From Phycisphaerae bacterium (GTDB lineage Bacteria > Planctomycetota > Phycisphaerae > UBA1845 > Fen-1342), in assembly GCA_963675745.2 (NCBI GenBank), contig CAXXWX010000015.1:421285-485284 (forward strand): DNA of 64,000 bases, given 5' to 3'. Each line of letters opens with the position of its first letter. Position 1 is the first letter of the stretch. The notes beneath the pieces were generated by a model. That model did no database searches, was not told the origin of the DNA, and saw only the letters and a program-made list of their open reading frames with translations. Made by a program: the position numbers and the translations under genes. Below are positions 3,232 to 56,080 of the stretch, piece after piece.

Positions 3232-3320
3232 TAGTCGTCAGTTTGCAGTTGTCAGTTTGCAGTTGGCAGTAAGCAGTCCCGATCGCGAGTTTCTGACTTC
3301 TTACTTCTGACTTCTAACTT
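3232..3320. repeat. Converging heptamer tandem arrays (CAGTNNG-type and TTCTNAC-type)
   Basis: cagtttg-cagttgt-cagtttg-cagttgg-cagtaag followed by ttctgac-ttcttac-ttctgac-ttctaac, lying between two convergent genes. Confidence 0.85.
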
Positions 3321-5212
3321 CCCTTCGGATATCCCACCTCCGCCAATGAGTCCTTGATCTCTCCCAGCGTGGTCGGGTCGTCGATCGTGGCCGGGGCGCG
3401 GTATTCAGTGCCGTCGGCGATTCTCTTCATCGTGCCGCGCAGCACTTTGCCCGAGCGCGTCTTGGGGAGTCGCTTGACCACGGTTACCAGCTTGAAGGCG
3501 GCGACGGGGCCGATCTTGTCGCGCACCATCTGCACCAGCTCTTTCGTTATCTCGGCGTGCGGGCGCTCGACTCCCGACTTGAGCACCACGAACCCGAGCG
3601 GCACTTCGCCCTTCAGCTTGTCCGCCGCCCCGACCACGGCGCACTCGGCGACATCCGGGTGGGCCGCCAGCACCTCTTCCATGCCGCCGGTGGAGAGGCG
3701 GTGGCCGGCGACGTTTATGATGTCGTCGGTGCGCCCCATGATGTAGAGATAGCCGTCCTCGTCGCGATAGCCCGCGTCAGCCGTCAGATAGCAGCCCTCA
3801 AACGCGCTCAGATATGAGCTGACGTAACCGTCGTCATTCTGCCAGAGTGTTGGCAGACATCCCGGGGGCAGCGGCAGCTTGATGACGATGCTGCCGTTTT
3901 CACCGTCCGGCACCTGCTTGCCGTTTTCATTGACGATCCGCACGTCATAGCCGGGTACGGCCCGCGTCGGCGAGCCCGGTTTGACCGGCGCCGGATCGAG
4001 CCCCATGCAGTTCGCCGCGATGGCCCACGCCGTCTCAGTCTGCCACCAGTGGTCGATCACCGGAACGCCCAGCTTCTGCTGGGCCCAGGCGAGCGTGTCG
4101 GGGTCGCAGCGTTCGCCGGCCAGGAACAGCGTGCGGAAGCCGCTCATGTCGTGCTTGCCGATGTAACTGCCCTCGGGGTCGTCGCGTTTGATGGCCCGGA
4201 AGGCCGTCGGCGCGGTGAACAGCACGCCGACGTTGTGCTGCGAGATGACGCGCCAGAATGCGCCGGGATCGGGCGTGCCCACCGGCTTGCCCTCAAAGAT
4301 GATCGTCGTGCAGCCGTAGAGCAGCGGCGCGTAGATGATGTACGAATGCCCGACCACCCAGCCGATGTCCGACGCGGCCCAGTAAACCTCGCCCGGCTCG
4401 ACGTTGTAGATGTTCTTCATGCTCCAGACCATGGCGACCGCATGGCCGCCGTTGTCGCGCACCACACCCTTCGGCACGCCGGTGGTTCCCGACGTGTAGA
4501 GGATGTAGAGCGGGTCGGTCGCTTCGAGTGGCACGCAGTCAGCGGGCTCGGCGTCGGCCACGGCGGCGTTCCAATCGACGTCGCGCTCGGTCATCGTCGC
4601 CTGGGCCTGCGGGCGCTGCAGGATGATGCACTTCTCGGGCTTGGCCGTGGACAGGCGTATGGCTTCGTCGAGCAGGGGCTTGTATTCGATGACCTTCTTG
4701 CCCTCGATGCCGCACGAGGCCGACACGATCAGCTTGGGCTTGGCGTCGTCGATGCGCGTGGCGAGCTCCTTGGCGGCGAACCCGCCAAAGACCACCGAGT
4801 GAACCGCGCCGAGCCGCGCGCAGGCGTACATTGCCACCAATGACTCGGGGATCATCGGCATGTAGATCACGACGCGATCGCCCTTGGTCACGCCTTGTTG
4901 CCGCAAGGCGCCGGCGAAGCAGGCCACCTGGTCACGCAGCTCGCGATAGGTGATGGTCTTGACGGTGTCGGTGACCGGGCTGTCGTAGATGACCGCCGCC
5001 TGATCGCCGCGCCCGCGTTCGACATGCCGATCGATCGCGTTGTAGCAGGTGTTTAGCTGGCCGCCAACGAACCAGCGGTAGAAGGGCTTGTTCGAGCTGT
5101 CGAGCACGCGGTCCCAACGTTTGTACCAGTCAATGCCCTCGGCGGCTTCGGCCCAGAACTCCTCGGGCGTCTCCAGCGATCGGCGGTAGGCCTCTTCATA
5201 CGCGCTCGGCAT
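3314..5212 (-). CDS. prpE: Propionyl-CoA synthetase (acetate/propionate-CoA ligase family)
   Basis: YILYTSGTTGVPKG AMP-binding motif, DHWWQTET, GRTDDIINVAGHRLSTG, LPKTRSGK. GVVRDNGGHAVA is typical of the PrpE-like subfamily. Confidence 0.85.
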   Translation of the reverse strand: MPSAYEEAYRRSLETPEEFWAEAAEGIDWYKRWDRVLDSSNKPFYRWFVGGQLNTCYNAIDRHVERGRGDQAAVIYDSPVTDTVKTITYRELRDQVACFAGALRQQGVTKGDRVVIYMPMIPESLVAMYACARLGAVHSVVFGGFAAKELATRIDDAKPKLIVSASCGIEGKKVIEYKPLLDEAIRLSTAKPEKCIILQRPQAQATMTERDVDWNAAVADAEPADCVPLEATDPLYILYTSGTTGVPKGVVRDNGGHAVAMVWSMKNIYNVEPGEVYWAASDIGWVVGHSYIIYAPLLYGCTTIIFEGKPVGTPDPGAFWRVISQHNVGVLFTAPTAFRAIKRDDPEGSYIGKHDMSGFRTLFLAGERCDPDTLAWAQQKLGVPVIDHWWQTETAWAIAANCMGLDPAPVKPGSPTRAVPGYDVRIVNENGKQVPDGENGSIVIKLPLPPGCLPTLWQNDDGYVSSYLSAFEGCYLTADAGYRDEDGYLYIMGRTDDIINVAGHRLSTGGMEEVLAAHPDVAECAVVGAADKLKGEVPLGFVVLKSGVERPHAEITKELVQMVRDKIGPVAAFKLVTVVKRLPKTRSGKVLRGTMKRIADGTEYRAPATIDDPTTLGEIKDSLAEVGYPKGS

Positions 5213-8034: not shown

Positions 8035-8863
8035 TCACGGCCAGTTGTTGATGATGATCGCGATGTAGATGACGATGACTGGGACGACGAGTGGGAGGAC
8101 GCCTCCGAGTAGCCAGAGCAGCGGAATGCCGATCGCCGCTTTGAGCGTGGCGATCCGGCTCCGCAGCGTGGCGCGGGCACAGCGCACGAGGCTGAGCCAC
8201 CACATCCCCAGCAGCAGGAGGGCGAGAAGAATGGCGACAAGGTAAACCACCGGCATATCATCCGGCTGAGTTAAGTACTGCGCCAGGAGTCCGAAGATCA
8301 ACCCGACGCATGGAAACAGCGCCAGCGCCCCATTGCAGTAATAGCTCAGCGTCGCCGCGCGCACGCGCTGCGGGCGCGACATGCCGCGGCGCCAGAACAG
8401 CCAGCTTGGCAGGCCGGTCGCGGCGATAATCCACAATACGCCCGCGGCCGCCAGCGACACGCCGGCTACGAGCGTTGTACTCGCCGAAGAAGTCGACGAA
8501 GCGCTCGCCCCACTCCTCGTACCACAGCAGCGGCAGCGCGACCGCCAACGTGACAATCAGGTGCGACGCCGAGATCCAGCGGAAGAGCTGCGCGTCGCGG
8601 TAATTCACCGGCCGGTACATCTCGCGCGCCAGCAGACCCGTGCGGCAGACGACGAGCGCCACCGTTTCCCAGTATGTCCGCGTCCAGCCGCGCTCGCTGT
8701 GGTGACACCACGGAACGCCGGACGCCGTCTCGCGGGCATAGTCGAGCGCGTCGCCGCACTCGGGGCAGTTATTGCCGGTCAGGCCGCGCAGGTCATAGCC
8801 GCATTTGCAGCAGATGACGCCGACCGGCAGCGGCGGTAGCTCTGGTGCGGGCGAAGTGCTCAT
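8035..8863 (-). CDS. Zn-ribbon (CxxCGYDLRGL..CPECG) membrane protein, split by a frameshift near 8475
   Basis: ORF 8258..8878 gives the N-terminal CCKCGYDLRGLTGNNCPECG. ORF 8035..8556 continues with TM helices (TLVAGVSLAAAGVLWII...). Confidence 0.7.
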
Positions 8864-8930
8864 GGCAGCCGGCAGCATAGCGGCGGTGGCGACAATGGCT
8901 CAACACCGGCGGCAGTTTGCGGGGTGGTTT

Positions 8931-9242
8931 TTAGAGGTCAGAGGTTAGAGGTTAGAGGTCAGATTTCAGATTTCAGATTTCAGGAACGGCAACAGCAGGC
9001 AGGGAACTGGGAACGGGGAACGGGGAATGGTCGGCCGCTTTCCATCTCGTTGCCTAGCTGCCTAGTTGCCTGGTTGCCGGCTGTTGCCTTGTTGCCTTGT
9101 TGCCTACCGTTACCTGTTGTTGCCTCGTTGCCTCGCTGCCTCGCTGCCTGGTTGCCTGCCGCTCCCCCTCCCGACCTCCGAAAACCCAAAGCCAACCGCT
9201 TTCTTGCTTCTGACTTCTTACTTCTTACTTCTTACTTCCTTA
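8931..9242. repeat. Mixed heptamer/octamer tandem repeat tract
   Basis: (agaggty)4, (agatttc)3, (gggaacn)4, (ttgcctng)n, (ttcttac)n. Confidence 0.85.
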
Positions 9243-9290
9243 CAATCCTGCAACACAGTTTTCATTCCCCTAGTCAACAGGAGCGGGGCG

Positions 9291-11631
9291 ATGCGCTATC
9301 TGGCGGCAGCAATCGTGTTTCTGATGTGCGCGGGACCGGCGACGGCCGGCGAGGGGCCGTTGACCGACGAGCAGCGCGCCGAACTCTCACGCCACTTCGG
9401 CTTCGGCGAGCTCGAGATCTACAAGTTCGAGTACGGCGTCGGCCGCATGCGCCTGGCCGACCTGAACAGCGACGGCCGCACCGACATCATCGCGTGGAAT
9501 CCGCGCAAGGCACGCATCGAGTTGCTCTATCAGCCCGACGCCGACAAACAGCCCGCCGCCGACCGGCAGGAGCTCGAACAAAACGAAATCCCCAATCGCG
9601 GAAACCTGCGCATCGAGCATCTCCCGGTCGCCTATGACATCGCCACCCTTGAAGTGGCCGACCTGACCGGCGACAAGCTGCCCGATATCGTCTTCTTCGG
9701 CGAGCCCAAGGAAGTTGTGATTATGCCCGGGATGGCGGGTGGCGGGTTCGGCGCGGCGGATGGCCTGCGGGCGCCGGACGGCGACGCGCGCGGCGGCACG
9801 CTGGCCATCGGCGACTTCAACCACGACGGCCGCAACGATGTCGCGCTGCTCGGCCCGAAAGTGCTTCAGATCTTCCACCAGAAAGCGGGCGGCGGACTGG
9901 CCCAGCCCGTTCGCATCGTACACAACATCGAACAGCCGATCATCATGATAGCGGCGGACGTCAACGGCGACGGCCGCGACGACCTGGCCATCTCGACCGA
10001 CGATCGCCAATACGCCATCAACGTCATCCTCCAGGAGCCCGACGGTGTGCTGGGCCCGCTGCGGCGCATCAAAGTTCCCAACGTGCGCAGCATGACATTC
10101 GCGCCGGCGGCGGGTGGCGACGACCTGTTCGCCGTCGAAACCACCACCGGGCGCCTGATCCACTATCGCTGGGAGGCACCCGCCGAAACCGCCACCGAAT
10201 CTGACTGGGCCGCTCTATCTCTACTCCTACCCGGTCGAGAGCAAGAGTGAACGCCGTCCGCTTGCAACCGGCGACGTGGATGGTGACGGCCTGCTGGGAC
10301 GTGGGTAGCGGTCGATTCCGATGCCGCCCGCCTGGTGCTGTTCAAACAGACGAAACACGGCCTGCAAACCGGCGTCGACTTCCCCGCGCTGATGAAGACC
10401 GTTGATCTGCAAGTGGTCGATGTCGACGGTGATGGGCGCGCCGAGGTGCTCAGCGTCAGCGCGGAAGAGAAAGTGCTGGGCCTGTCGCGCTTCGCGGACG
10501 GGCGCCTGGCCTTTCCGACGCCACTGCCGATCCTCGGTGATCCGCTGGCGGCGACCATCGGTGAGCTGGTGCCGGGAGCGGGAGCGCGGCTGGTTTGCCT
10601 GGTGCGCACCGAGGAAGATGAGGTGCGCGAGAAGCTGCTGGAAGGCGCAGATGACGACGATGCGGAAGCGTTCCTCTGTGTCAGCGACCCCAGCGGCGCC
10701 ACGCGGCACACCATCACGCCCATCGAGGAGTTGGAAGAGGAACCGACCGGGCTGCGCATCGCCGACGTGAACCAGGATGGTCGCGCGGACGTGCTGCTGT
10801 TTTACCCGTTCTCCGCTTTGGGCGTGTTTCTGCAAACGCCCGAGGGGGGAGTTTGCCCAGTTCGCAGGCGCCGACAAGCGCGACGGGCTGGTCGAAGACG
10901 CCAAGCTGGCCGGCTATGTGCTGAGCGATGTGACCGGCGACGGCAAGCCCGAGTTGATCCTCACGCTGAAGAACATGGCGCGGGCCCTGGCGGTGCGCGA
11001 TGGAAAATGGGTCGTCGTTGACCAGTACAACCCGGAATCGTCGGCGGCCATGCTGACCGGCATCGCGGCGGTCGAAGACCAGCCGGGCAGCCCCACGCTT
11101 GTCATGTACGACAAGCAGGACAATGAGCTGGTGGTCTTCAAGAGGCGGAGCGACAAGACCTACGCGGCCGCCAGAACGCAACCGGTCGGCGTATTCGAGT
11201 TGAGCGGCATGTTCGCCGGCGCAATCGGGGGGGGCGGGAAAGGCGCCTTGCTGCTGGCCGACGCCAAGGTGCTGGCGATGTTACGGCCGGGCGAGACGCC
11301 TCTGTCGTTCGTCCAGCGGCATGCCTATGAGACCGACACGAAGCGCGGCTGGCTGGCGGATGCGGCGGTCGGCGACGTAAACGCCGACGGTGTTCGTGAT
11401 ATCGTCGCGGCCGACACGCGCAAAGCGAACCTCGAAGTGCTGACCACACTGCCGAGCGGCGCATTCGATCGCGCGTTACGCTTCCAGGTCTTTCAGGGCA
11501 AACGGTTCTCCGACGAACCAGATCGCGGCGGCGACCCGCGCGAGATTCTGGTCGGCGACGTGACCGGCGACCGGCACGACGACATTGTCGTCATCGCCCA
11601 CGACCGCGTTATCGTCTATCCGGGGCAATAG
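9291..11631 (+). CDS. Secreted FG-GAP/VCBS repeat protein, interrupted by several single-base indels
   Basis: SD caggag, signal peptide MRYLAAAIVFLMCAGPATA, many (A/G)D(L/V/F)(N/T/D)GDGxxD repeats continuing across ORFs 9066..10250, 10335..11021 and 10777..11631. Confidence 0.8.
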
Positions 11632-12724: not shown

Positions 12725-12728
12725 AACA

Positions 12729-12830
12729 GGAAGTAAGAAGTCAGAAGTAAGAAGTCAGAGACACGCTCACGAATGCGGATTGTGCGGCGATGGCGCGTTT
12801 CTGACTTCTAACTTCTTACTTCTGACTTCC
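12729..12830. repeat. Inverted pair of AGAAGTN heptamer arrays
   Basis: gaagtaagaagtcagaagtaagaagtcagagacacgc ... gcgcgtttctgacttctaacttcttacttctgacttc. Confidence 0.85.
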
Positions 12831-13630
12831 GTCAACGCTTCTACCACGTTCAGCCCGTCGCGCAATGCGCGCACGTCGTGTGTGCGGATGTAGTCGGCGC
12901 CCTGCTGCGCCGCCCACAGTTCGACCGCCAGGGTCCCGGCGGCCCGTTCGGACACTGGTCGCGGCTCCTCGGAACCGCCGATGACAGCGCCGACAAAAGA
13001 CTTGCGCGACGCCGATACGCAAATCGGCAACCCGAGCGTTTTCAGTTGATCCAGTCCGCGCAGCACCGCCAGGCTGGCTTCCGCGTTTGACCCGATGAAA
13101 TAGCCCAGCCCGGGATCGAGGATAATCTGCTCGCGATGCACACCGCCCGCGGCAAGCGCGCTCAAACGCCGCTCGAAGAACCGCATGATCCGCTCGACAA
13201 TTGTCGCTGGATCGGTGACCAGGCGTTCCGCGTGCGCGTCGCCGGACGTGGAGTGCATCAGGATCAGCCGGGCTCTGGAGTCCGCGACGACCTTGATGGT
13301 CTCCGAATCGCGCGCCCCGGTAATGTCGTTGACGATGTCCGCCCCGAGCGACAGTGCCGCACGCATGACCAGCGGCCGGTACGTGTCGATCGAAACACAC
13401 ACGTCGCGCGCCTTCAACGCGCGAATGGTGCTGGACACGCGCGCAATCTCGGTTTCTTCCGAGACGCGCTCGGCGTCGGGATGGCTGGATTCGGCGCCGA
13501 TGTCGATGACGTCCGCACCATCGGAAACAAGCCGCAGCGCATGATCGATGGCGCGGTCGGGGTCCAGGTAGCGACCGCCGTCGGAAAAGGAATCGCGCGT
13601 GATGTTAACGATGCCAAGAATCCGAGTCAT
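12767..13630 (-). CDS. folP: Dihydropteroate synthase, Sul-like
   Basis: GIVNITRDSFSDGG, VIDIGAESSHPDA, VNDITG, LILMHS, ILDPGLGYFIG, SRKSF, YIRTHDV. Confidence 0.92.
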   Translation of the reverse strand: MTRILGIVNITRDSFSDGGRYLDPDRAIDHALRLVSDGADVIDIGAESSHPDAERVSEETEIARVSSTIRALKARDVCVSIDTYRPLVMRAALSLGADIVNDITGARDSETIKVVADSRARLILMHSTSGDAHAERLVTDPATIVERIMRFFERRLSALAAGGVHREQIILDPGLGYFIGSNAEASLAVLRGLDQLKTLGLPICVSASRKSFVGAVIGGSEEPRPVSERAAGTLAVELWAAQQGADYIRTHDVRALRDGLNVVEALTEVRSKKLEVRNAPSPHNPHS

Positions 13631-13648: not shown

Positions 13649-13763
13649 GAAGGTTAGAAGTTAGAAGTTAGAGGTTAGAGGTTAGAGGTTAGAAGCGCGC
13701 CTCTGGATGCGACCTGGGCCACGTCAGCGCGTTTCTTACTTCTTACTTCTAACTTCTGACTTC
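13649..13763. repeat. Inverted pair of AGA(A/G)GTT heptamer arrays
   Basis: (ggttaga/agttaga)6-agcgcgc ... gcgcgtttcttacttcttacttctaacttctgacttc. Confidence 0.85.
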
Positions 13764-14856
13764 ATCGCACCAGCCCTTTCTCCATCTCGCGGGTACGCAC
13801 GCCGCGCAGGGACATAGTAAGCGCTTCCCGATGCGTTGCCAGCTTCAGCGTTTCGTCGGCGGAGATGCGTTTGGCGCGGCAGAGCCACTCGAGATGCTGG
13901 TCGAACGTCTGCATACCCAGGTCGCCGTTCATGACGGCCTGCGGGATCGCGGTGACGCGGTTCTCCATGATCAGTTTCCGAACGGTCCCGGTGCCGCGCA
14001 TGATCTCGCAGACCGGCACGCGCCCCCCTTCGCGCGCATTGGCGAGCTGCATGGCGATAACGGCCTCGATGTTGAGCGCCAACTGGGTCAGCAGCAGGTT
14101 GTGTTGCGCCGGGTCGAACATCGCGATGATGCGCTCGACGGTCTGCTGCACGTTGGTGGCGTGAACGGTGGCGAAGACCAGGTGTCCCGTATCCGCCGCC
14201 CGCAGGGCCACGCGCATGCTGGCCAGGTCGCGCATCTCGCCGACCATCAGAACATCGGGGTCTTGTCGCAACACATGGCGAATCGCGTCTTCGTAGCTGC
14301 GCGTATCACGCCCGACCTCGATCTGGGCTACAAGCGAGCGGGCACTGTGGTGAATGAACTCGATCGGGTCCTCGATGGTGATGATCCGCCTGTCGAAGTT
14401 CTGGTTGATATAACCCAGCATGGCCGCGATCGTCGTACTCTTGCCGCTCGAGGTGGTCCCGGTGACGAGCACCAGCCCGCGGCGCGTGCCGGCGATGTCG
14501 CGCATGATCGGCGGCAGATTCAGCTCCTCAAACGTGGGTATCTCGGCGTGTACGCGGCGCAACGCCAGCGCCGGCGTGTCGAGCTGGTAAAACACGTTGG
14601 CGCGAAAGCGGGCGTCCTCGGAGAAACTGTACGACAGATCACAACTGCCCTCGCGATTCAGCAAAGTGCGGCTGAGCTCGTCGAGCACTTCGTCCGCCAT
14701 CCGGAGCAGATCCTCCCGCGTCAGTGGTGGGCAGTCCACGGCGCGCACCTTGCCGTCAACGCGCAGCATGGGAGGCGCGCCGTGTTGCACGTGGACATCG
14801 GATGCGTTCACCCGGATCGCCGTCTCCAACAGTCGCCGCAATTCCAGGCCGGCCAT
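13762..14856 (-). CDS. pilT: PilT/PilU family type IV pilus ATPase
   Basis: ASDVH, RFRANVF, GTTSSGKSTT Walker A, TIEDPIE, LRQDPDVLMVGEMRD, DTGHLVFATVH, GMQTFDQHL. Confidence 0.85.
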   Translation of the reverse strand: MAGLELRRLLETAIRVNASDVHVQHGAPPMLRVDGKVRAVDCPPLTREDLLRMADEVLDELSRTLLNREGSCDLSYSFSEDARFRANVFYQLDTPALALRRVHAEIPTFEELNLPPIMRDIAGTRRGLVLVTGTTSSGKSTTIAAMLGYINQNFDRRIITIEDPIEFIHHSARSLVAQIEVGRDTRSYEDAIRHVLRQDPDVLMVGEMRDLASMRVALRAADTGHLVFATVHATNVQQTVERIIAMFDPAQHNLLLTQLALNIEAVIAMQLANAREGGRVPVCEIMRGTGTVRKLIMENRVTAIPQAVMNGDLGMQTFDQHLEWLCRAKRISADETLKLATHREALTMSLRGVRTREMEKGLVR

Positions 14857-15009: not shown

Positions 15010-15897
15010 ATGGACCGGAATGCCGCGTACTTACGCCGTATTACCGATGACCAGGGCTGCATCGCTGGAGATCTGGTCTGTCGCCGATGCGCATATAACC
15101 TGCGGGGATTGCCGGGCGGCGGGCGCTGCCCCGAGTGCGGGTTGCCGGTCGGGCGCTCGGCTTGGGGCGATATGCTGCGGTACTCCGACCCGGCCTGGGT
15201 GGAGAAGCTCCAGCACGGCCTGCTGCTGGCCCTCTGCGGACTGTTGTGCCGCGTGGCCGTGGCGCTCATGGCGAGGCTCGCGGCAACCGGCGCTGACGCG
15301 CCGGTTCTCATGGCACTGCTGGACCTCGGCGCGACCATGGTGGGGTACTACGGCGTGTGGCGTTTGACCACACGCGATCCAAGCGGGATCGGCGAAGATC
15401 AGTACGGGCGTACGCGCCGCTTCATCCGGTTTGCGCTCGTGGTCGCACTGGTGCTCGACATTGGCGCTGCGATGACAACGGTGATGGTTGCATTGCCCGT
15501 TGCCCTGCTGGCCGGCCCGCCGATCGCCGTCATCCTGACCACCCTGCTGGACGTTGCCGCGTTGCTGGCGACCTTGAGCTACCTTGAGAAACTCGCCAGG
15601 CGCGTGCCCGACGACGACCTGGCCGACCGCGCGCAAGTCCTGCTATGGGCGCTGGTGGTGTTGTTGGTGACTGGAGTGATCGGGGTTCTGCTGATCGCGT
15701 TTACGCAGAGCGGCGCCGTCGATGGCGCCGGGATCGTGGCTGGAGTACTCGCGGCCGCGAGCTGCGCGGGTGTCTTCCTGCTGCTGCTGTTTGCGGGCAT
15801 GCTGTTGGCCCTGCTTCTCCAACTTCAGCAGTGCCTCCGCGAGCAGGCCGAGTTGGCCCGTGCCACATGGGCCGCCGACATTGACGACGAGTTTTGA
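15010..15897 (+). CDS. Zn-ribbon (CRRCAYNLRGL..CPECG) multi-TM membrane protein
   Basis: N-terminal 2xCxxC, then DPAW, TxRDP and RVPD motifs with about 6 TM. Paralog of 16148..17068. Confidence 0.75.
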   Translation: MDRNAAYLRRITDDQGCIAGDLVCRRCAYNLRGLPGGGRCPECGLPVGRSAWGDMLRYSDPAWVEKLQHGLLLALCGLLCRVAVALMARLAATGADAPVLMALLDLGATMVGYYGVWRLTTRDPSGIGEDQYGRTRRFIRFALVVALVLDIGAAMTTVMVALPVALLAGPPIAVILTTLLDVAALLATLSYLEKLARRVPDDDLADRAQVLLWALVVLLVTGVIGVLLIAFTQSGAVDGAGIVAGVLAAASCAGVFLLLLFAGMLLALLLQLQQCLREQAELARATWAADIDDEF

Positions 15898-16147: not shown

Positions 16148-17068
16148 GTGGAAACACCGCCGGCCGAACTCGAAAGCGTCCTTGACGAACAGGGGTGCCT
16201 GAACGTCGATGTGCCGTGCCGGGCCTGCGGGTACAACTTGCGCGGATTGCCGTGGAGCGGCCACTGCCCCGAGTGCGGCCTGCCCGTGGGGCGCTCGACG
16301 TATGGCGACCTGCTCCAATTCTGCGACCCGGCGTGGCTCGAACGGCTCAGGCGCGGCGTGACAGTAATTCTGTGGGGCGCGCTGGCGTTGGTTCTAGCCC
16401 TTGTCGTTGGTCGCGTCTTGGCGATCACTCTGCGCCTTCCGATCATCTACCCGCTGGTGACGTTGGGCGCGTCAATCCTCACGCTTTACGGCACCTGGCT
16501 CGTAACCGAGCCCGATCCGAGCGGACTGGGCGAGCGCGAGTACGGAACTCTGCGCCGTCTCGCAAGGGCCGCGCTGCTAATCGGCTTACTTGGCACGCTG
16601 GCGATGACCGCGCTGACAATTGCGCTGCACCCGGCGGTTATCTTAGGCCTCGTTTGCGTGAATACGCTGGGCGGGATCGGCGGCGCTATCGGCGAGTACG
16701 CCAAGTTCTTCTATCTTTCCAAGCTGGCTGTGAGAATCCCCGATCCGGCATTGTCGCGACGAGCCGCGATGCTGCGCTTCGGAGTCGGCATCCCCATGCT
16801 GATCGATGCCCTGCTCGTCGGGCTGGCGATGTTTGTGGCGTATATCCTCACAGGGACCACACCGGGCGCCACCGGTTTGGTGCCGTGCCTGGTTCTCCCC
16901 GTGCGCGCCGTCACGCTGGTGTTCTGGATTATCTCGCTGGTGCTGCTTTTCCAGCTCCGAAGCCGCTTCAGAGACCTCCACCTCTTCGCCAGCGAGTTCT
17001 GGAGCCGGGATTCAGGAGACGATCCGCCCGCCAACCCGCTGCGGCCCTCAGACGCGCCTTGGTCCTGA
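16148..17068 (+). CDS. Zn-ribbon (CRACGYNLRGL..CPECG) multi-TM membrane protein
   Basis: Shares DxQGC..CPECGLPVGRSxxGD.L...DPAW, DPSG.GE..YG and R.PD with the upstream paralog. Confidence 0.75.
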   Translation: METPPAELESVLDEQGCLNVDVPCRACGYNLRGLPWSGHCPECGLPVGRSTYGDLLQFCDPAWLERLRRGVTVILWGALALVLALVVGRVLAITLRLPIIYPLVTLGASILTLYGTWLVTEPDPSGLGEREYGTLRRLARAALLIGLLGTLAMTALTIALHPAVILGLVCVNTLGGIGGAIGEYAKFFYLSKLAVRIPDPALSRRAAMLRFGVGIPMLIDALLVGLAMFVAYILTGTTPGATGLVPCLVLPVRAVTLVFWIISLVLLFQLRSRFRDLHLFASEFWSRDSGDDPPANPLRPSDAPWS

Positions 17069-17083
17069 CCGATACATAAACGT

Positions 17084-19756
17084 GTGATGCTGGGATTTCG
17101 GTACGCGCACATTATCGGGCGAATCGTGGCTGTGGCCGCCACAACCGCCGCGCTGGCGGGTGGCACTGCGCTGGGCGAGCCATGGTCCGGCATCGAGACG
17201 CCAACGCAGCATTTCAAACGCGTCAGGCTCTTTGATTTCAACGAGCCGGACAATTATTACGACGTCCCCATGCACTGGACGCGGTTCACCGGGGATGGTT
17301 GGCCCGAATACGCCGAGGGTGTGTTCGACAACGAGGTCGGACACGATGCGCCGCCTTCGTTCCGCTTGAGCACGGCGATGGAAAACGTCGCGCTCGAATA
17401 CAACCACCCCGATCTGGGTGTGATTCCCGGCGCCGACTACCTGATCGTCGGTTACATTCGCGCCGAGCGCGTCCGCCACGCGCGCGCGTTTCTCTCCGCC
17501 CATTTCGTCAATCGCTTCGGCGATACGCTCGAAGCGAGCATGCGCGTCAGCCAGTTGATTCAATCGACCGGCAATGAGGCCGAGCCCTGGCAACGCGTCG
17601 AGATCCTGCTCACCGGCATCTATCCCGAAGCTGACTCCCTCCGCCTGCGCGCCATGCTCGTGCAGCGTTACGTGTGGCGCGATGCCGACGAGACGGAAGT
17701 GGACCCGGTTATCCAGCAGGATATCCGCCCGGCGGCGTGGTTCGACGATATCGCCGTCTATCGATTGCCGCGCGTCGAGCTGGCGTTTTCCAACCCAGGA
17801 AACGTCATGACGCGGGGCGAGGTGGCGGATCTGATTGCCAACGTACACAACGCCACCGATCAACCGCTGAGTGCGACGCTGCTGATCGGCAACGCCTCCG
17901 GTGAGTTCGTCCACCGTGAGAGTTTTACGATACCGCCGCAGTCCGTGACGCCACAACGTGTGATTGTCCCGCGATTGCCGGTCGGCTTGTACGACGCCCG
18001 GCTGGTGCTGTCCAACGGCGAGCACACCTTGCTTCAACGGTACCTGCGTTTTGCGGTGCTCAACCCGATCGACGAGCGTGCGGGCGCGTCAGCCGACATG
18101 GGTGTTGACATCGGCTCGCAGCGGATCTTCGACGTCGGCGGGGCCACGCGGCTGGTGCAGGAGCTTCGTTGCGGGTTGGTCCGCGCCGGCATCCCGATGG
18201 TCGGCGCATTGGACTCGGATGAGCTGCTGGCCTACTACGACGAGCGCAGCGCCCTGCTGCGCGCGCTGACGGCCCAGCGCATCATGACCGCCGGCGTGAT
18301 CCTCGCCCCCGGCGCGGCGTACGACCAGGCCGCCGTCACATCGACACGAGAGATGCTGATCACCGAGCCGCGCTGGCGCGAGCAGTTTAATCCTGTGCTT
18401 GCCCAGCACGTGGGCGCGCTCATCTCACACTGGCAGATCGGCACCGAGGAAATCGAGCTCTCCGGCCCACGCTGCGAGCCCGAGCTGGTGGACGCGGTGC
18501 GCGAGCAGCTCGCGCAGTTTGTCTCGCTCCCGCGCATGATCGTGCCGCAAAGCGTGCTGGCCCCCCGGTCGCCGGGCGACCGCGACACGTGCTATTGGGT
18601 TCCCGGGACAGTTTCGACCGCCGCCCTGCCCCAGTACCTCGGGTTCCTGACCGAGCCGAGTGCCCGACAACGATGGCTGAAACTGGATCCGGCCGAAACC
18701 GCCGGGCTTGATCGCGGCGGGCGTCTTGCCGACCTGGCACGCCGAGTGGTTGCGGCCAAAGCGCTCGATCCCGATCGGTTGATTGTGCCGGCGCCGCTCG
18801 AGCTGTCCACGGGCAGCGGCATGCCGCTCTGGCAACCGACCGACGAGTACATTGTGCTGCGCACGCTCTTCCACCATCTCGCCGGCAAACGTGGCGTGGG
18901 CGCTATCGAGTTGCCGCATGATGGGATCATGCTGGTCTTCGCCGACGCTGCGGGCAGTTGCATGGTATTCTGGTCGCGGCGGCCCGAGATCAACGAGATT
19001 TCGCTCGATCTCTATCTCGGCGGCGAGCCGGAGTCTGTCGACCTGTGGGACAATCGCGAGCCGCTCCCGGTGCGTGACGGATGCGCGATCCTGCCGCTGA
19101 GCCCGACGCCGCGGATACTGATCAACGTTGACGCCCCGCTGACGCTGCTCCAGGCCAGCTTTCATATTGTGCCGACGTCGGTGCAGATCAACGACGTGAC
19201 GACGCAGCCGGTGCTTCACTTCCGCAATCACTATGACCAACCGCTAAGCGGAACGGTGCAACTGCACCCGCCCACCGACTGGCGTGTGGCGCCGCAGTCG
19301 TTCGACTTTGAGGTGCCCGCCGGGGGTGTGGTTGATCGCACGTTGGACCTGGAAGTCCCCAATCGGCATCTGGCGGTGCAACGCGATCTGCACGTTGCAA
19401 TAGAAACCACCGCACCGGCCGCCGCCAAGCTCGAGTTTGACGTGCCGTTCACCGTCGGCCTGCACGAACTGCAGGTAACCGCCCGCGCGCGCTGGCAGGA
19501 TGACACTCTGGTTGTCGAGCAGACCCTGCACAACGCCTCAGCCGAGCCCATAGACTTCACGGCTTTCTGCCAGGCACCACTTCGCCCGCGTGCAGATCGC
19601 GCCTTTCTCAATCTCGCGCCCGGAGAATCCCGTACGCAGACCTATGTGTTTGCCGATGCGCAGATACTCGAGCTGGCCGGCATGACGCTACACCTGGGAC
19701 TGCGCGAGAACAGGGGAAACCGCGAGTTGGACCAGCTTGTCGAAATCCCACGCTGA
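17084..19756 (+). CDS. Large secreted hypothetical protein (possible CBM-like, GH-like and Ig-like domains)
   Basis: 890-aa ORF with signal-like N-terminus. WQRVEI..AWFDDI resembles a jelly-roll end. C-terminal LSGTVQLHPPTDWRVAP is Ig/NPCBM-associated-like. Confidence 0.55.
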   Translation: MMLGFRYAHIIGRIVAVAATTAALAGGTALGEPWSGIETPTQHFKRVRLFDFNEPDNYYDVPMHWTRFTGDGWPEYAEGVFDNEVGHDAPPSFRLSTAMENVALEYNHPDLGVIPGADYLIVGYIRAERVRHARAFLSAHFVNRFGDTLEASMRVSQLIQSTGNEAEPWQRVEILLTGIYPEADSLRLRAMLVQRYVWRDADETEVDPVIQQDIRPAAWFDDIAVYRLPRVELAFSNPGNVMTRGEVADLIANVHNATDQPLSATLLIGNASGEFVHRESFTIPPQSVTPQRVIVPRLPVGLYDARLVLSNGEHTLLQRYLRFAVLNPIDERAGASADMGVDIGSQRIFDVGGATRLVQELRCGLVRAGIPMVGALDSDELLAYYDERSALLRALTAQRIMTAGVILAPGAAYDQAAVTSTREMLITEPRWREQFNPVLAQHVGALISHWQIGTEEIELSGPRCEPELVDAVREQLAQFVSLPRMIVPQSVLAPRSPGDRDTCYWVPGTVSTAALPQYLGFLTEPSARQRWLKLDPAETAGLDRGGRLADLARRVVAAKALDPDRLIVPAPLELSTGSGMPLWQPTDEYIVLRTLFHHLAGKRGVGAIELPHDGIMLVFADAAGSCMVFWSRRPEINEISLDLYLGGEPESVDLWDNREPLPVRDGCAILPLSPTPRILINVDAPLTLLQASFHIVPTSVQINDVTTQPVLHFRNHYDQPLSGTVQLHPPTDWRVAPQSFDFEVPAGGVVDRTLDLEVPNRHLAVQRDLHVAIETTAPAAAKLEFDVPFTVGLHELQVTARARWQDDTLVVEQTLHNASAEPIDFTAFCQAPLRPRADRAFLNLAPGESRTQTYVFADAQILELAGMTLHLGLRENRGNRELDQLVEIPR

Positions 19757-26418: not shown

Positions 26419-26907
26419 ATGCCGAAGAGCTACGATGTTGCCGTGCTGATGGGTAGCAAGAGCGACTGGGAGGTAATGCGGGCAGCCGTGGAGACACTCG
26501 AGGCGTTTGGCGTTTCGTGCGCGGCTGGAGTTTTATCGGCCCACCGCACGCCCGATGCGGTGGCCGCCTTTGTGCGTGAATCTGAGGCCGGCGGCACGCA
26601 GGTGTTTATCGCCGGGGCCGGCATGGCGGCACACCTGGCCGGAGCCATCGCCGCTCAGACAACGCTGCCCGTCTTGGGCGTGCCGCTGGCCGCGTCGGCG
26701 CTCAACGGGCTCGACGCGCTGCTGGCCACCGCGCAGATGCCCCAGGGCACGCCGGTGGCGACGTTCGCGGTTGGCAAGGCCGGCGCAATCAACGCCGCCC
26801 TGATGGCGATCAGCATTCTGGCCTGCTCACGTCCGCCACTGCGCGACGCGCTGCGCGCCTATCGCGCTGAACAAGCCGAGCGCGTGCTCAACGAAACGCT
26901 AGCGTAG
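26419..26907 (+). CDS. purE: N5-carboxyaminoimidazole ribonucleotide mutase
   Basis: [40 protein letters not shown]. Confidence 0.95.
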
Positions 26908-27007
26908 AATGCAGAATGAAGAATGCAGAATGAGGAAACTCCGCGCCGCGACCGCGTTGCATCACCTGCACAGCTTCTGCATTCCTCATTCTGCATTCTG
27001 CATTCTC
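26906..27007. repeat. Inverted pair of AGAATGN heptamer arrays
   Basis: agaatgcagaatgaagaatgcagaatgagg ... ttctgcattcctcattctgcattctgcattct. Confidence 0.85.
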
Positions 27008-27052
27008 CGCGCGAGACACATGTGGTCGTTCAAGTAAGCACCCAGGGGGCTC

Positions 27053-40438: not shown

Positions 40439-40531
40439 AAGGCAACCAGGCAACCAGGCAACGAGGCAAAGAGGCCACAGGTAGGCTGCCTGGCTTGAAT
40501 ACTGAGAACTGAACACTGAAAACTGAAAACT
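40439..40531. repeat. Octamer (AGGCAACC) and heptamer (ACTGAAA) tandem arrays
   Basis: aggcaacc-aggcaacc-aggcaacg-aggcaaag and actgaga-actgaac-actgaaa-actgaaa. Confidence 0.8.
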
Positions 40532-40625
40532 ACTTCCTGACTGCTCCGCCTGGCGGATTAAAAGAGACCATCGGGGTCTCTGCTATCAGGGTAGTCGAGT
40601 AGATGTAGCACGGAGAGTATGACCC

Positions 40626-55876: not shown

Positions 55877-55882
55877 ACCGGT

Positions 55883-56080
55883 GAGCGGCAAGCGGCAAGC
55901 GGTGAGCTGTGAGCTGTGAGCTGAGAGCGGTAGGCTGTAAGCGGCGAGCGGCAAGCGGCGAGCGGTGGGCCGTGGGCAGCGAGCGGTGGGCGATGGGCTG
56001 TCAGATTTCAGATTCTAGATTCCAGATTTCAAATCTCAGATTTCAAATCTCAGATTCCAGATCTCAGATGGCAGATTCCA
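55883..56080. repeat. Long heptamer tract: (GCGGNRA)n then (CAGATTY)n
   Basis: About 16 degenerate gcggcaa/gctgtga/gcggtgg units followed by about 11 cagattt/caaatct/cagattc units. Confidence 0.9.

Follow-up and report, generated by a model that had tools for sequence, protein, structure and literature searches.

What kind of gene is a chromosomal dihydropteroate synthase (DHPS) of a planctomycete that carries signatures of the sulfonamide-resistance enzymes: an acquired resistance determinant, or the ordinary enzyme of its host? The window considered here, i.e., the whole 64,000-nucleotide stretch of DNA that was analyzed, comes from a Phycisphaerae bacterium, and a preliminary description had proposed that its DHPS represents a naturally sulfonamide-insensitive folP lineage and a possible reservoir of sul genes. 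We favor, with a probability of roughly 0.78, the reading that the gene encodes the organism's ordinary, essential DHPS on a Sul-type scaffold that was acquired ancestrally, has been inherited family-wide, and is largely insensitive to sulfonamides. This reading is built on the sequence, its motif, a fold model, a sole copy in the assembly, presence across the family, clade membership, and host-like codon use; from these we infer activity, essentiality, insensitivity, and the order of gene gain and loss.

The DHPS protein and its alpha-6 region

The gene (folP*) occupies positions 12767..13630 on the (-) strand, starts with ATG, and encodes 287 amino acids, with the enzyme domain covering approximately residues 1–268 and the final ~20 residues read through a heptamer-repeat hairpin. 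The open reading frame and the segments quoted in the preliminary description are all present in the translation, including DGGRYLDP (residues 17–24), RFFERRLSAL (150–159), and TLAVEL (233–238). The protein scores 279 bits against the dihydropteroate synthase model TIGR01496 (cut-off 162.6) and stays far below the cut-offs of the NCBIfam models for Sul3 (NF000296, 248.8 vs 475 bits), Sul2 (NF000295, 246.7 vs 575), Sul1 (NF000294, 202.9 vs 600), and Sul4 (NF033502, 148 vs 600, the lowest of the Sul models). Its earlier designation as Sul1/Sul2-type is thus accurate as to the Sul type, but the protein is no closer to Sul1 or Sul2 than to Sul3.

In a sequence search of the PDB, the top five matches were Sul3 (three entries), Sul2, and Sul1 (E 5e-72 to 2e-57), and every FolP ranked below them. 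An AlphaFold model (pLDDT 94.6), whose input alignment contained Sul2 and Sul3, superimposed best on ligand-bound Sul3 (8scd; Z 41.2, rmsd 1.0 Å over 262 residues) and ligand-bound Sul2 (Z 40.4), followed by a soil FolP (Z 36.3). An alignment with E. coli folP and with sul genes taken from plasmid records put the identity at 48% for Sul2, 47% for Sul3, and 43% for Sul1; a Parvibaculum protein reached 50%, two Leptospira proteins 39%, three canonical Phycisphaerae FolP 38%, and E. coli FolP 33%. The catalytic and substrate residues shared by Sul and FolP are kept (N9, S14, F15, D82, N101, M125, D172, K210, S211, R249, and H251); among them, the pterin-, phosphate-, and pABA-binding residues N9, D82, N101, D172, K210, S211, R249, and H251 align with Sul1–3 and E. 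coli FolP.

The alpha-6 region, residues 172–187 (DPGLGYFIGSNAEASL; 13070..13117, (-) strand), contains the two-residue insertion that the preliminary description had announced. Two extra residues follow DPGxG relative to E. coli FolP and the three canonical Phycisphaerae FolP, and no gap separates this loop from those of Sul1, Sul2, and Sul3. All 34 canonical FolP sampled read DPGxGFxK, without the insertion. The preliminary description missed the gatekeeper, Tyr177 (codon 13100-13102, (-) strand), which by alignment is the equivalent of Sul1 F178, Sul2 F179, and Sul3 F177, the position whose role was established in PMC10328974, where the first Phe of Gly-Phe-Phe-Leu is shown to block sulfonamides in Sul1/2/3. 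The flanking Met and Leu of Sul1–3 are replaced by Leu175 and Ile179, so that Met-Gly-Phe-Phe-Leu becomes Leu-Gly-Tyr-Phe-Ile: the Gly-Phe-Phe-Leu with its gatekeeper Phe is lost and the aromatic character is retained. Loop 2, ESSHPDA (residues 47–53; 13472..13492, (-) strand), combines the Sul-like Ser49-His50-Pro-Asp with a FolP-like Glu47.

Scored against the published 34-position Sul PROSITE pattern of PMC6335563, the window DHPS misses 9 positions, compared with 9–15 for eight Leptospira-clade proteins, 2–5 for nine Parvibaculum-group proteins, and 18–25 for canonical FolP; among the proteins scored, only Sul1–3 match exactly. Because Leptospira-clade and Parvibaculum-group proteins also miss positions, the pattern does not delimit FolP*.

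The window DHPS is thus like the mobile Sul1/2/3 (7s2i, 7s2j/7s2k, and 8scd; PMC10328974) in fold, alpha-6 length, and catalytic residues, but is 43–48% identical to them, lies below their NCBIfam cut-offs, and is not mobile. With canonical FolP, including those of sister Phycisphaerae families, and with Sul4, it shares the predicted reaction, the catalytic core, and a passing TIGR01496 score, whereas canonical FolP lack the insertion and are 33–38% identical; Sul4 likewise has no insertion, according to PMC6335563.

Phylogeny and distribution of the Sul-type gene

Trees were built with FastTree from 222 rows and, for 67 of those rows, with IQ-TREE under LG+G4 and LG+C20, with the insertion columns kept. 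The split between Sul-type and canonical DHPS received 100/100 (LG+G4, for which the bootstrap had not converged), 100/99 (LG+C20), and 100 (FastTree), and in all three trees the window DHPS falls with Sul1–3, Parvibaculum, and Leptospira FolP* rather than with canonical FolP. Grouping with the canonical FolP of sister families was rejected (AU p=2e-10); therefore, the gene would have come from outside. Clustering with ordinary FolP, the outcome that would have contradicted the preliminary description, was thus not found. Its characterization of the protein as intermediate between FolP and Sul fits the FolP-like Glu in loop 2 and a branching position outside the Sul1/2/3 crown, but not the fully Sul-type alpha-6 or the placement inside the Sul-type clade (100/99–100).

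Within this clade, the window DHPS sits with two of three same-genus relatives in all three trees (100/96, 100/97), and the third same-genus genome (G003) falls outside the supported trio. Monophyly of the family's gene was recovered in none of the three trees and was not rejected (AU p=0.13). Both IQ-TREE trees unite Sul1, Sul2, Sul3, Parvibaculum, and relatives in a crown (100/99) to which the window DHPS and Leptospira do not belong. FastTree instead places the family beside Sul1/2, with Sul3 outside, a grouping that was not rejected (AU p=0.066), and the topology within the clade is unstable between FastTree and IQ-TREE. The planctomycete sequences did not come out as monophyletic, but the tests did not reject their monophyly (p=0.37 and p=0.14), nor did they reject a grouping of Sul3 with Leptospira (p=0.33). 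In the LG+C20 tree the crown lies within planctomycete sequences (96/94, 97/96), but we dropped the claim of such nesting because constraining the crown to group with Leptospira improved on the free C20 tree by 3.4 log units (p=0.60).

The Sul-type gene is a property of the whole family. A DHPS match was found in 66 of 72 family genomes, and all 66 carry the Sul type only, with no second, canonical copy; 63 have a single full-length match (309–413 bits on a Sul-type profile), and the other three, split or partial, read as Sul-type. The six genomes with no match are 70–92% complete. Outside the family, one of 374 genomes of the class (a count that includes an unpublished low scorer, G308) exceeds 300 bits, the next best scoring 244, although this line could miss highly divergent Sul-type genes, as Leptospira-clade proteins score 256–289. 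The four best non-family matches in the class that were read are all canonical, as are the FolP of all 24 genomes examined from ten other families of the order. The one genome above 300 bits, G051, is among these 24 genomes of other families and has its Sul-type gene as a second DHPS on a 4.5-kb contig (C160), which is probably misbinned because it carries the DHPS neighbors of the window genome's family. Elsewhere in the phylum, a threshold of E 1e-80 was passed by 12 of 400 other genomes, which belong to three further families, and in all ten of these that were tested the Sul-type gene is the only DHPS. In Spirochaetota, 31 of 201 genomes match; two are named Leptospira, and the rest of that clade is labeled by kinship. 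A scan of named genomes with the window DHPS gave, among the matches listed, canonical FolP only (34–45%), which served as the outgroup.

According to the favored reading, horizontal transfer would have brought a Sul-type folP* into the ancestor of the family, the canonical folP would have been lost, and inheritance would have been vertical since. Replacement of folP in place was considered; among the 20 canonical sister-family loci compared, one has the typical neighbor xseB in common with the family's loci and two others a rarer one, which does not establish such a replacement.

It is also conceivable, though we consider it unlikely, that Planctomycetota rather than Leptospiraceae hold the old aromatic-gated Sul-type radiation that yielded the Sul1/2/3 crown, with the trait assembled in two steps, the insertion and then the aromatic gate. 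The Sul type serves as the sole DHPS in at least four planctomycete families, among which the C20 tree places the crown; the data allow this scenario and do not favor it over the tree with Leptospira as sister. If it were true, the repeated exchange of canonical folP for the Sul type in whole families would suggest that a natural pABA mimic exerted selection long before the advent of sulfa drugs.

The gatekeeper itself varies. Among 41 family sequences it is Phe in 30, Leu in 9, Tyr in 1, and Met in 1; Tyr is thus uncommon (1/41), as it is among the 120 nearest matches (1/120) and 120 Sul3 relatives (8/120). Among the best 150 representatives at 50% identity, 68 full-length rows lack the canonical motif (63 with a readable motif), and two of the 68 rows grouped with canonical FolP. 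The deepest insertion-bearing branches (P0429, P0439, P0432, and similar) carry Ala or Gly at the gatekeeper, with Ala in 8 of the 68 representatives, which suggests that the insertion predates the aromatic gate. The family DHPS of two genomes (G031 and G007) contain an internal insertion of ~30 residues.

Expected response to sulfonamides

With its standard catalytic residues, the window DHPS is predicted to join pterin pyrophosphate to pABA, supplying dihydropteroate. The two-residue insertion would reshape helix alpha-6 and bring an aromatic side chain (Tyr177; Phe in Sul1–3) beside the pABA carboxylate, where it would act as a gate against the bulkier sulfonamide group. If the gate blocks the sulfonamide, the enzyme should therefore be largely insensitive without drug selection, and a long-resident Sul-type housekeeping gene common to the family would be drug-insensitive by nature.

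The published mutants bear on this prediction by analogy. In the source data of PMC10328974, Sul1 F178W and Sul3 F177W retain a sulfamethoxazole (SMX) MIC of 2048, so an aromatic residue other than Phe can work at the gatekeeper position, whereas Phe-to-Gly lowers the MIC to 16 (Sul1, Sul3) or 32 (Sul2). A Phe-Gly insertion in E. coli DHPS gave only a two-fold rise (MIC 32 vs 16; same source), and by this analogy the insertion would be insufficient for resistance by itself. Tolerance of the Phe-to-Trp substitution makes insensitivity of the window DHPS likely, and we regard it as quite probable that the enzyme is sulfonamide-insensitive by nature, in the absence of drug selection. The naturally insensitive lineage of the preliminary description is thus Sul-type, chromosomal, and the sole DHPS found, and its insensitivity is a likely prediction.

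Several features argue in the other direction: three alpha-6 positions have changed together, 9 of 34 pattern positions are missed, and the Tyr177 hydroxyl could bond to the sulfonyl group. The main alternative, which we consider improbable, keeps the same origin and housekeeping role but has the enzyme sulfonamide-sensitive or weakly insensitive, the gatekeeper drifting without selection for drug discrimination. The variation of this residue in the family (F30, L9, Y1, M1), the retention of Glu47 in loop 2, the small effect of the insertion in E. coli DHPS, and the fact that the gatekeeper mutants considered from PMC10328974 cover Trp and Gly, with no Tyr, are all compatible with it. Against it stand the full tolerance of Trp at the gatekeeper (PMC10328974), the best fit of the model to Sul3 and Sul2 ahead of the next FolP (Z 41.2 and 40.4 vs 36.3, albeit from an alignment containing both), and the resistance conferred by the more divergent Leptospira enzyme (MIC 512 in E. 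coli; PMC6335563). The same source gives SMX resistance in E. coli, with an MIC of 512 or more, for two folP* members.

Chromosomal folP* with the Sul motif is already known, and the window DHPS belongs to that described type. It was defined in Rhodobiaceae and Leptospiraceae in PMC6335563, the sample list of which includes Phycisphaera mikurensis, and PMC10328974 mentions a Gly-Phe-Phe motif of unclear significance in hundreds of DHPS. Like the FolP* of Leptospiraceae and of Parvibaculum and other Rhodobiaceae, as described there, the window gene encodes a predicted chromosomal housekeeping DHPS with the insertion, host-like composition, and a place in the clade with Sul1–3; like Leptospira FolP*, it lies outside the crown in both IQ-TREE trees. 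It differs from these in its phylum, its neighborhood (no ftsH-folP-glmM), its Tyr gatekeeper, and its loop-2 Glu, and its resistance is a prediction made here. The non-mobile DHPS from forest soil metagenomes, resistant in E. coli according to the available text of PMC6416219, are alike in being environmental, 46–58% identical to their nearest known proteins (in one case Sul3), and free of mobile elements; their hosts are not assigned to Planctomycetota there, and the likeness is one of description only. Our literature search found no report of a planctomycete folP*, although an earlier mention is possible, subscription papers and bioRxiv supplements being largely outside its reach; PMC13602658 contributed nothing further. 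What the window DHPS adds to the described type is a family-wide distribution and a rare natural gatekeeper variant.

Previously known from two families, pre-antibiotic Sul-type DHPS would thereby extend to an entire Phycisphaerae family and to three more families of planctomycetes. The natural gatekeeper variants (Phe, Tyr, Leu, and Met, with Ala or Gly deeper) make two questions testable, namely which residues are enough to discriminate against sulfa drugs and for what reason Sul-type enzymes predate the drug.

Chromosomal context, heptamer repeats, and the clinical sul genes

The preliminary assignment to a planctomycete chromosome was confirmed: the host belongs to Phycisphaerae, and the window lies on a 485-kb contig (C15) that carries tuf, secE, nusG, rplK/A/J, and purF, the window itself being core chromosome with purF, purE, tuf, secE, nusG, rplK/A/J, and lexA. 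Codon use of the DHPS gene is host-like (GC3 0.78, equal to the genome median of 0.78; CAI at the 41st percentile of 2501 long ORFs). Searches with tblastn, PF00809, and TIGR01496 agree that it is the sole DHPS in the assembly; a second PF00809 match is a 1245-aa open frame that we take to be MetH. The second, canonical folP that the preliminary description suggested looking for was not found, although one could be unassembled because the genome is 91% complete with 6% contamination. By comparison, Sul1–3 ride on a mobile element beside a native folP, whereas the window DHPS is accompanied by no second, sensitive folP. No FolB match was found in the whole genome (91% complete), though folK (C21), folP, and folC (C19) are present, which reflects either an assembly gap or an alternative enzyme.

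The gene stands alone, as the preliminary description had it, outside any folate operon or integron. Its neighbors are an EamA transporter and, upstream on the same strand, a PilT/PilU-family ATPase (13762..14856, (-) strand) that is also adjacent to the DHPS gene in four family genomes (G001, G002, G007, and G024). The window ORFs that were scanned include no transposase or integrase, and the 12 PF00589 integrase matches in the genome all lie on contigs other than C15. An 890-aa protein with no matched family (17084..19756, (+) strand) recurs near DHPS across the family (11–12 of 36 loci) and, judging by this recurrence, marks an old chromosomal location; a frequent gene order at the family's loci is 890-aa protein, DHPS, dapA, comF-like, xseB (8–12 of 36 loci per neighbor). 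A scan of the locus for promoters and terminators gave nothing above chance.

Further observations concern the rest of the assembly. An FG-GAP repeat protein seemingly extends over three frames at window 9066-11631, (+) strand (9066-10250, 10335-11021, and 10777-11631), with possible frameshifts. Three membrane proteins with no matched family (8258-8878, (-); 15010-15897, (+); 16148-17068, (+)) have a common N-terminal cysteine-cluster motif, and a similar gene sits between heptamer hairpins on contig C17. A 4.5-kb stretch occurs twice at 99.6% identity (C2:107001-111500 and C22:684-5189), through duplication or strain mixture.

Hairpins of heptamer repeats flank the DHPS gene. The downstream one (12729..12830; 38-nt arms, 87% complementary) covers the 3′ end of the ORF and lengthens it. 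The upstream one (13649..13765) separates pilT from the DHPS gene, and its outer arm also pairs with the downstream outer arm over 42 nt (86%). One might therefore regard the gene as a recently acquired mobile resistance cassette, set between inverted heptamer repeats and under selection from sulfonamide pollution, since hairpins on both sides form a 42-nt inverted repeat and two of the genome's 21 hairpins bracket this gene alone. We consider this highly improbable, and the idea was rejected. Period-7 tandem arrays number 160 in the genome vs 2 in a shuffle, 21 of them as close inverted pairs, and the hairpins are therefore no sign of mobility at the DHPS gene; the downstream hairpin is of this genome-wide type and not specific to it. 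The window alone contains arrays at 3290-3323, 8929-9032, 9200-9243, 12727-12833, 13649-13765, 26903-27009, 40500-40532, and 55879-56038. Several hairpins bracket single genes elsewhere in the genome; these include genes that, by their translations, resemble rsmG, groES, and genes for four-helix-bundle proteins. Of 12 DHPS loci of relatives, one has an array beside the gene (same-genus G001), one has an array far off, and ten have none. Host-like codon use, neighbors common across the family, the absence of a canonical folP as a fallback, and the lack of a transposase or integrase among the window ORFs scanned also speak against a cassette.

Still less probable is that the window lineage was the direct donor of a clinical sul gene: the insertion and clade are shared and the C20 tree has the crown arising among planctomycete sequences (96/94, 97/96), but identity to Sul1–3 is only 43–48%, Sul2 falls within the Parvibaculum proteins (100/99), Sul3 falls among other relatives (86%), grouping the crown with Leptospira improves on the free C20 tree by 3.4 log units, and a recent donor role is refuted because the clinical genes have closer relatives. 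The notion of a reservoir of sul genes is accordingly weak, with a Parvibaculum protein at 80% to Sul2 and proteins at 86–90% to Sul3. Among the matches listed, the plasmid proteins closest to the window DHPS are Sul2 and Sul3 themselves, at <60%. To judge by these identities, the window DHPS is a distant cousin of the clinical sul genes, not their source, and provides no evidence of an imminent new clinical gene. Loose similarity searches could nevertheless miscount such genes as sul pollution markers.

Other relatives of the clinical genes came to light. One protein (P0368) is sister to Sul1, with 58% identity and support of 99/96–97. Sul3 has relatives (P0126, P0127, P0147, P0171, and P0172) at 86–90%, with P0127 on an 807-kb contig, and at 60–69% in Prevotellaceae and Negativicutes. 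These are far closer than Leptospira (42–43%), which bears on the proposed Leptospira origin of sul3.
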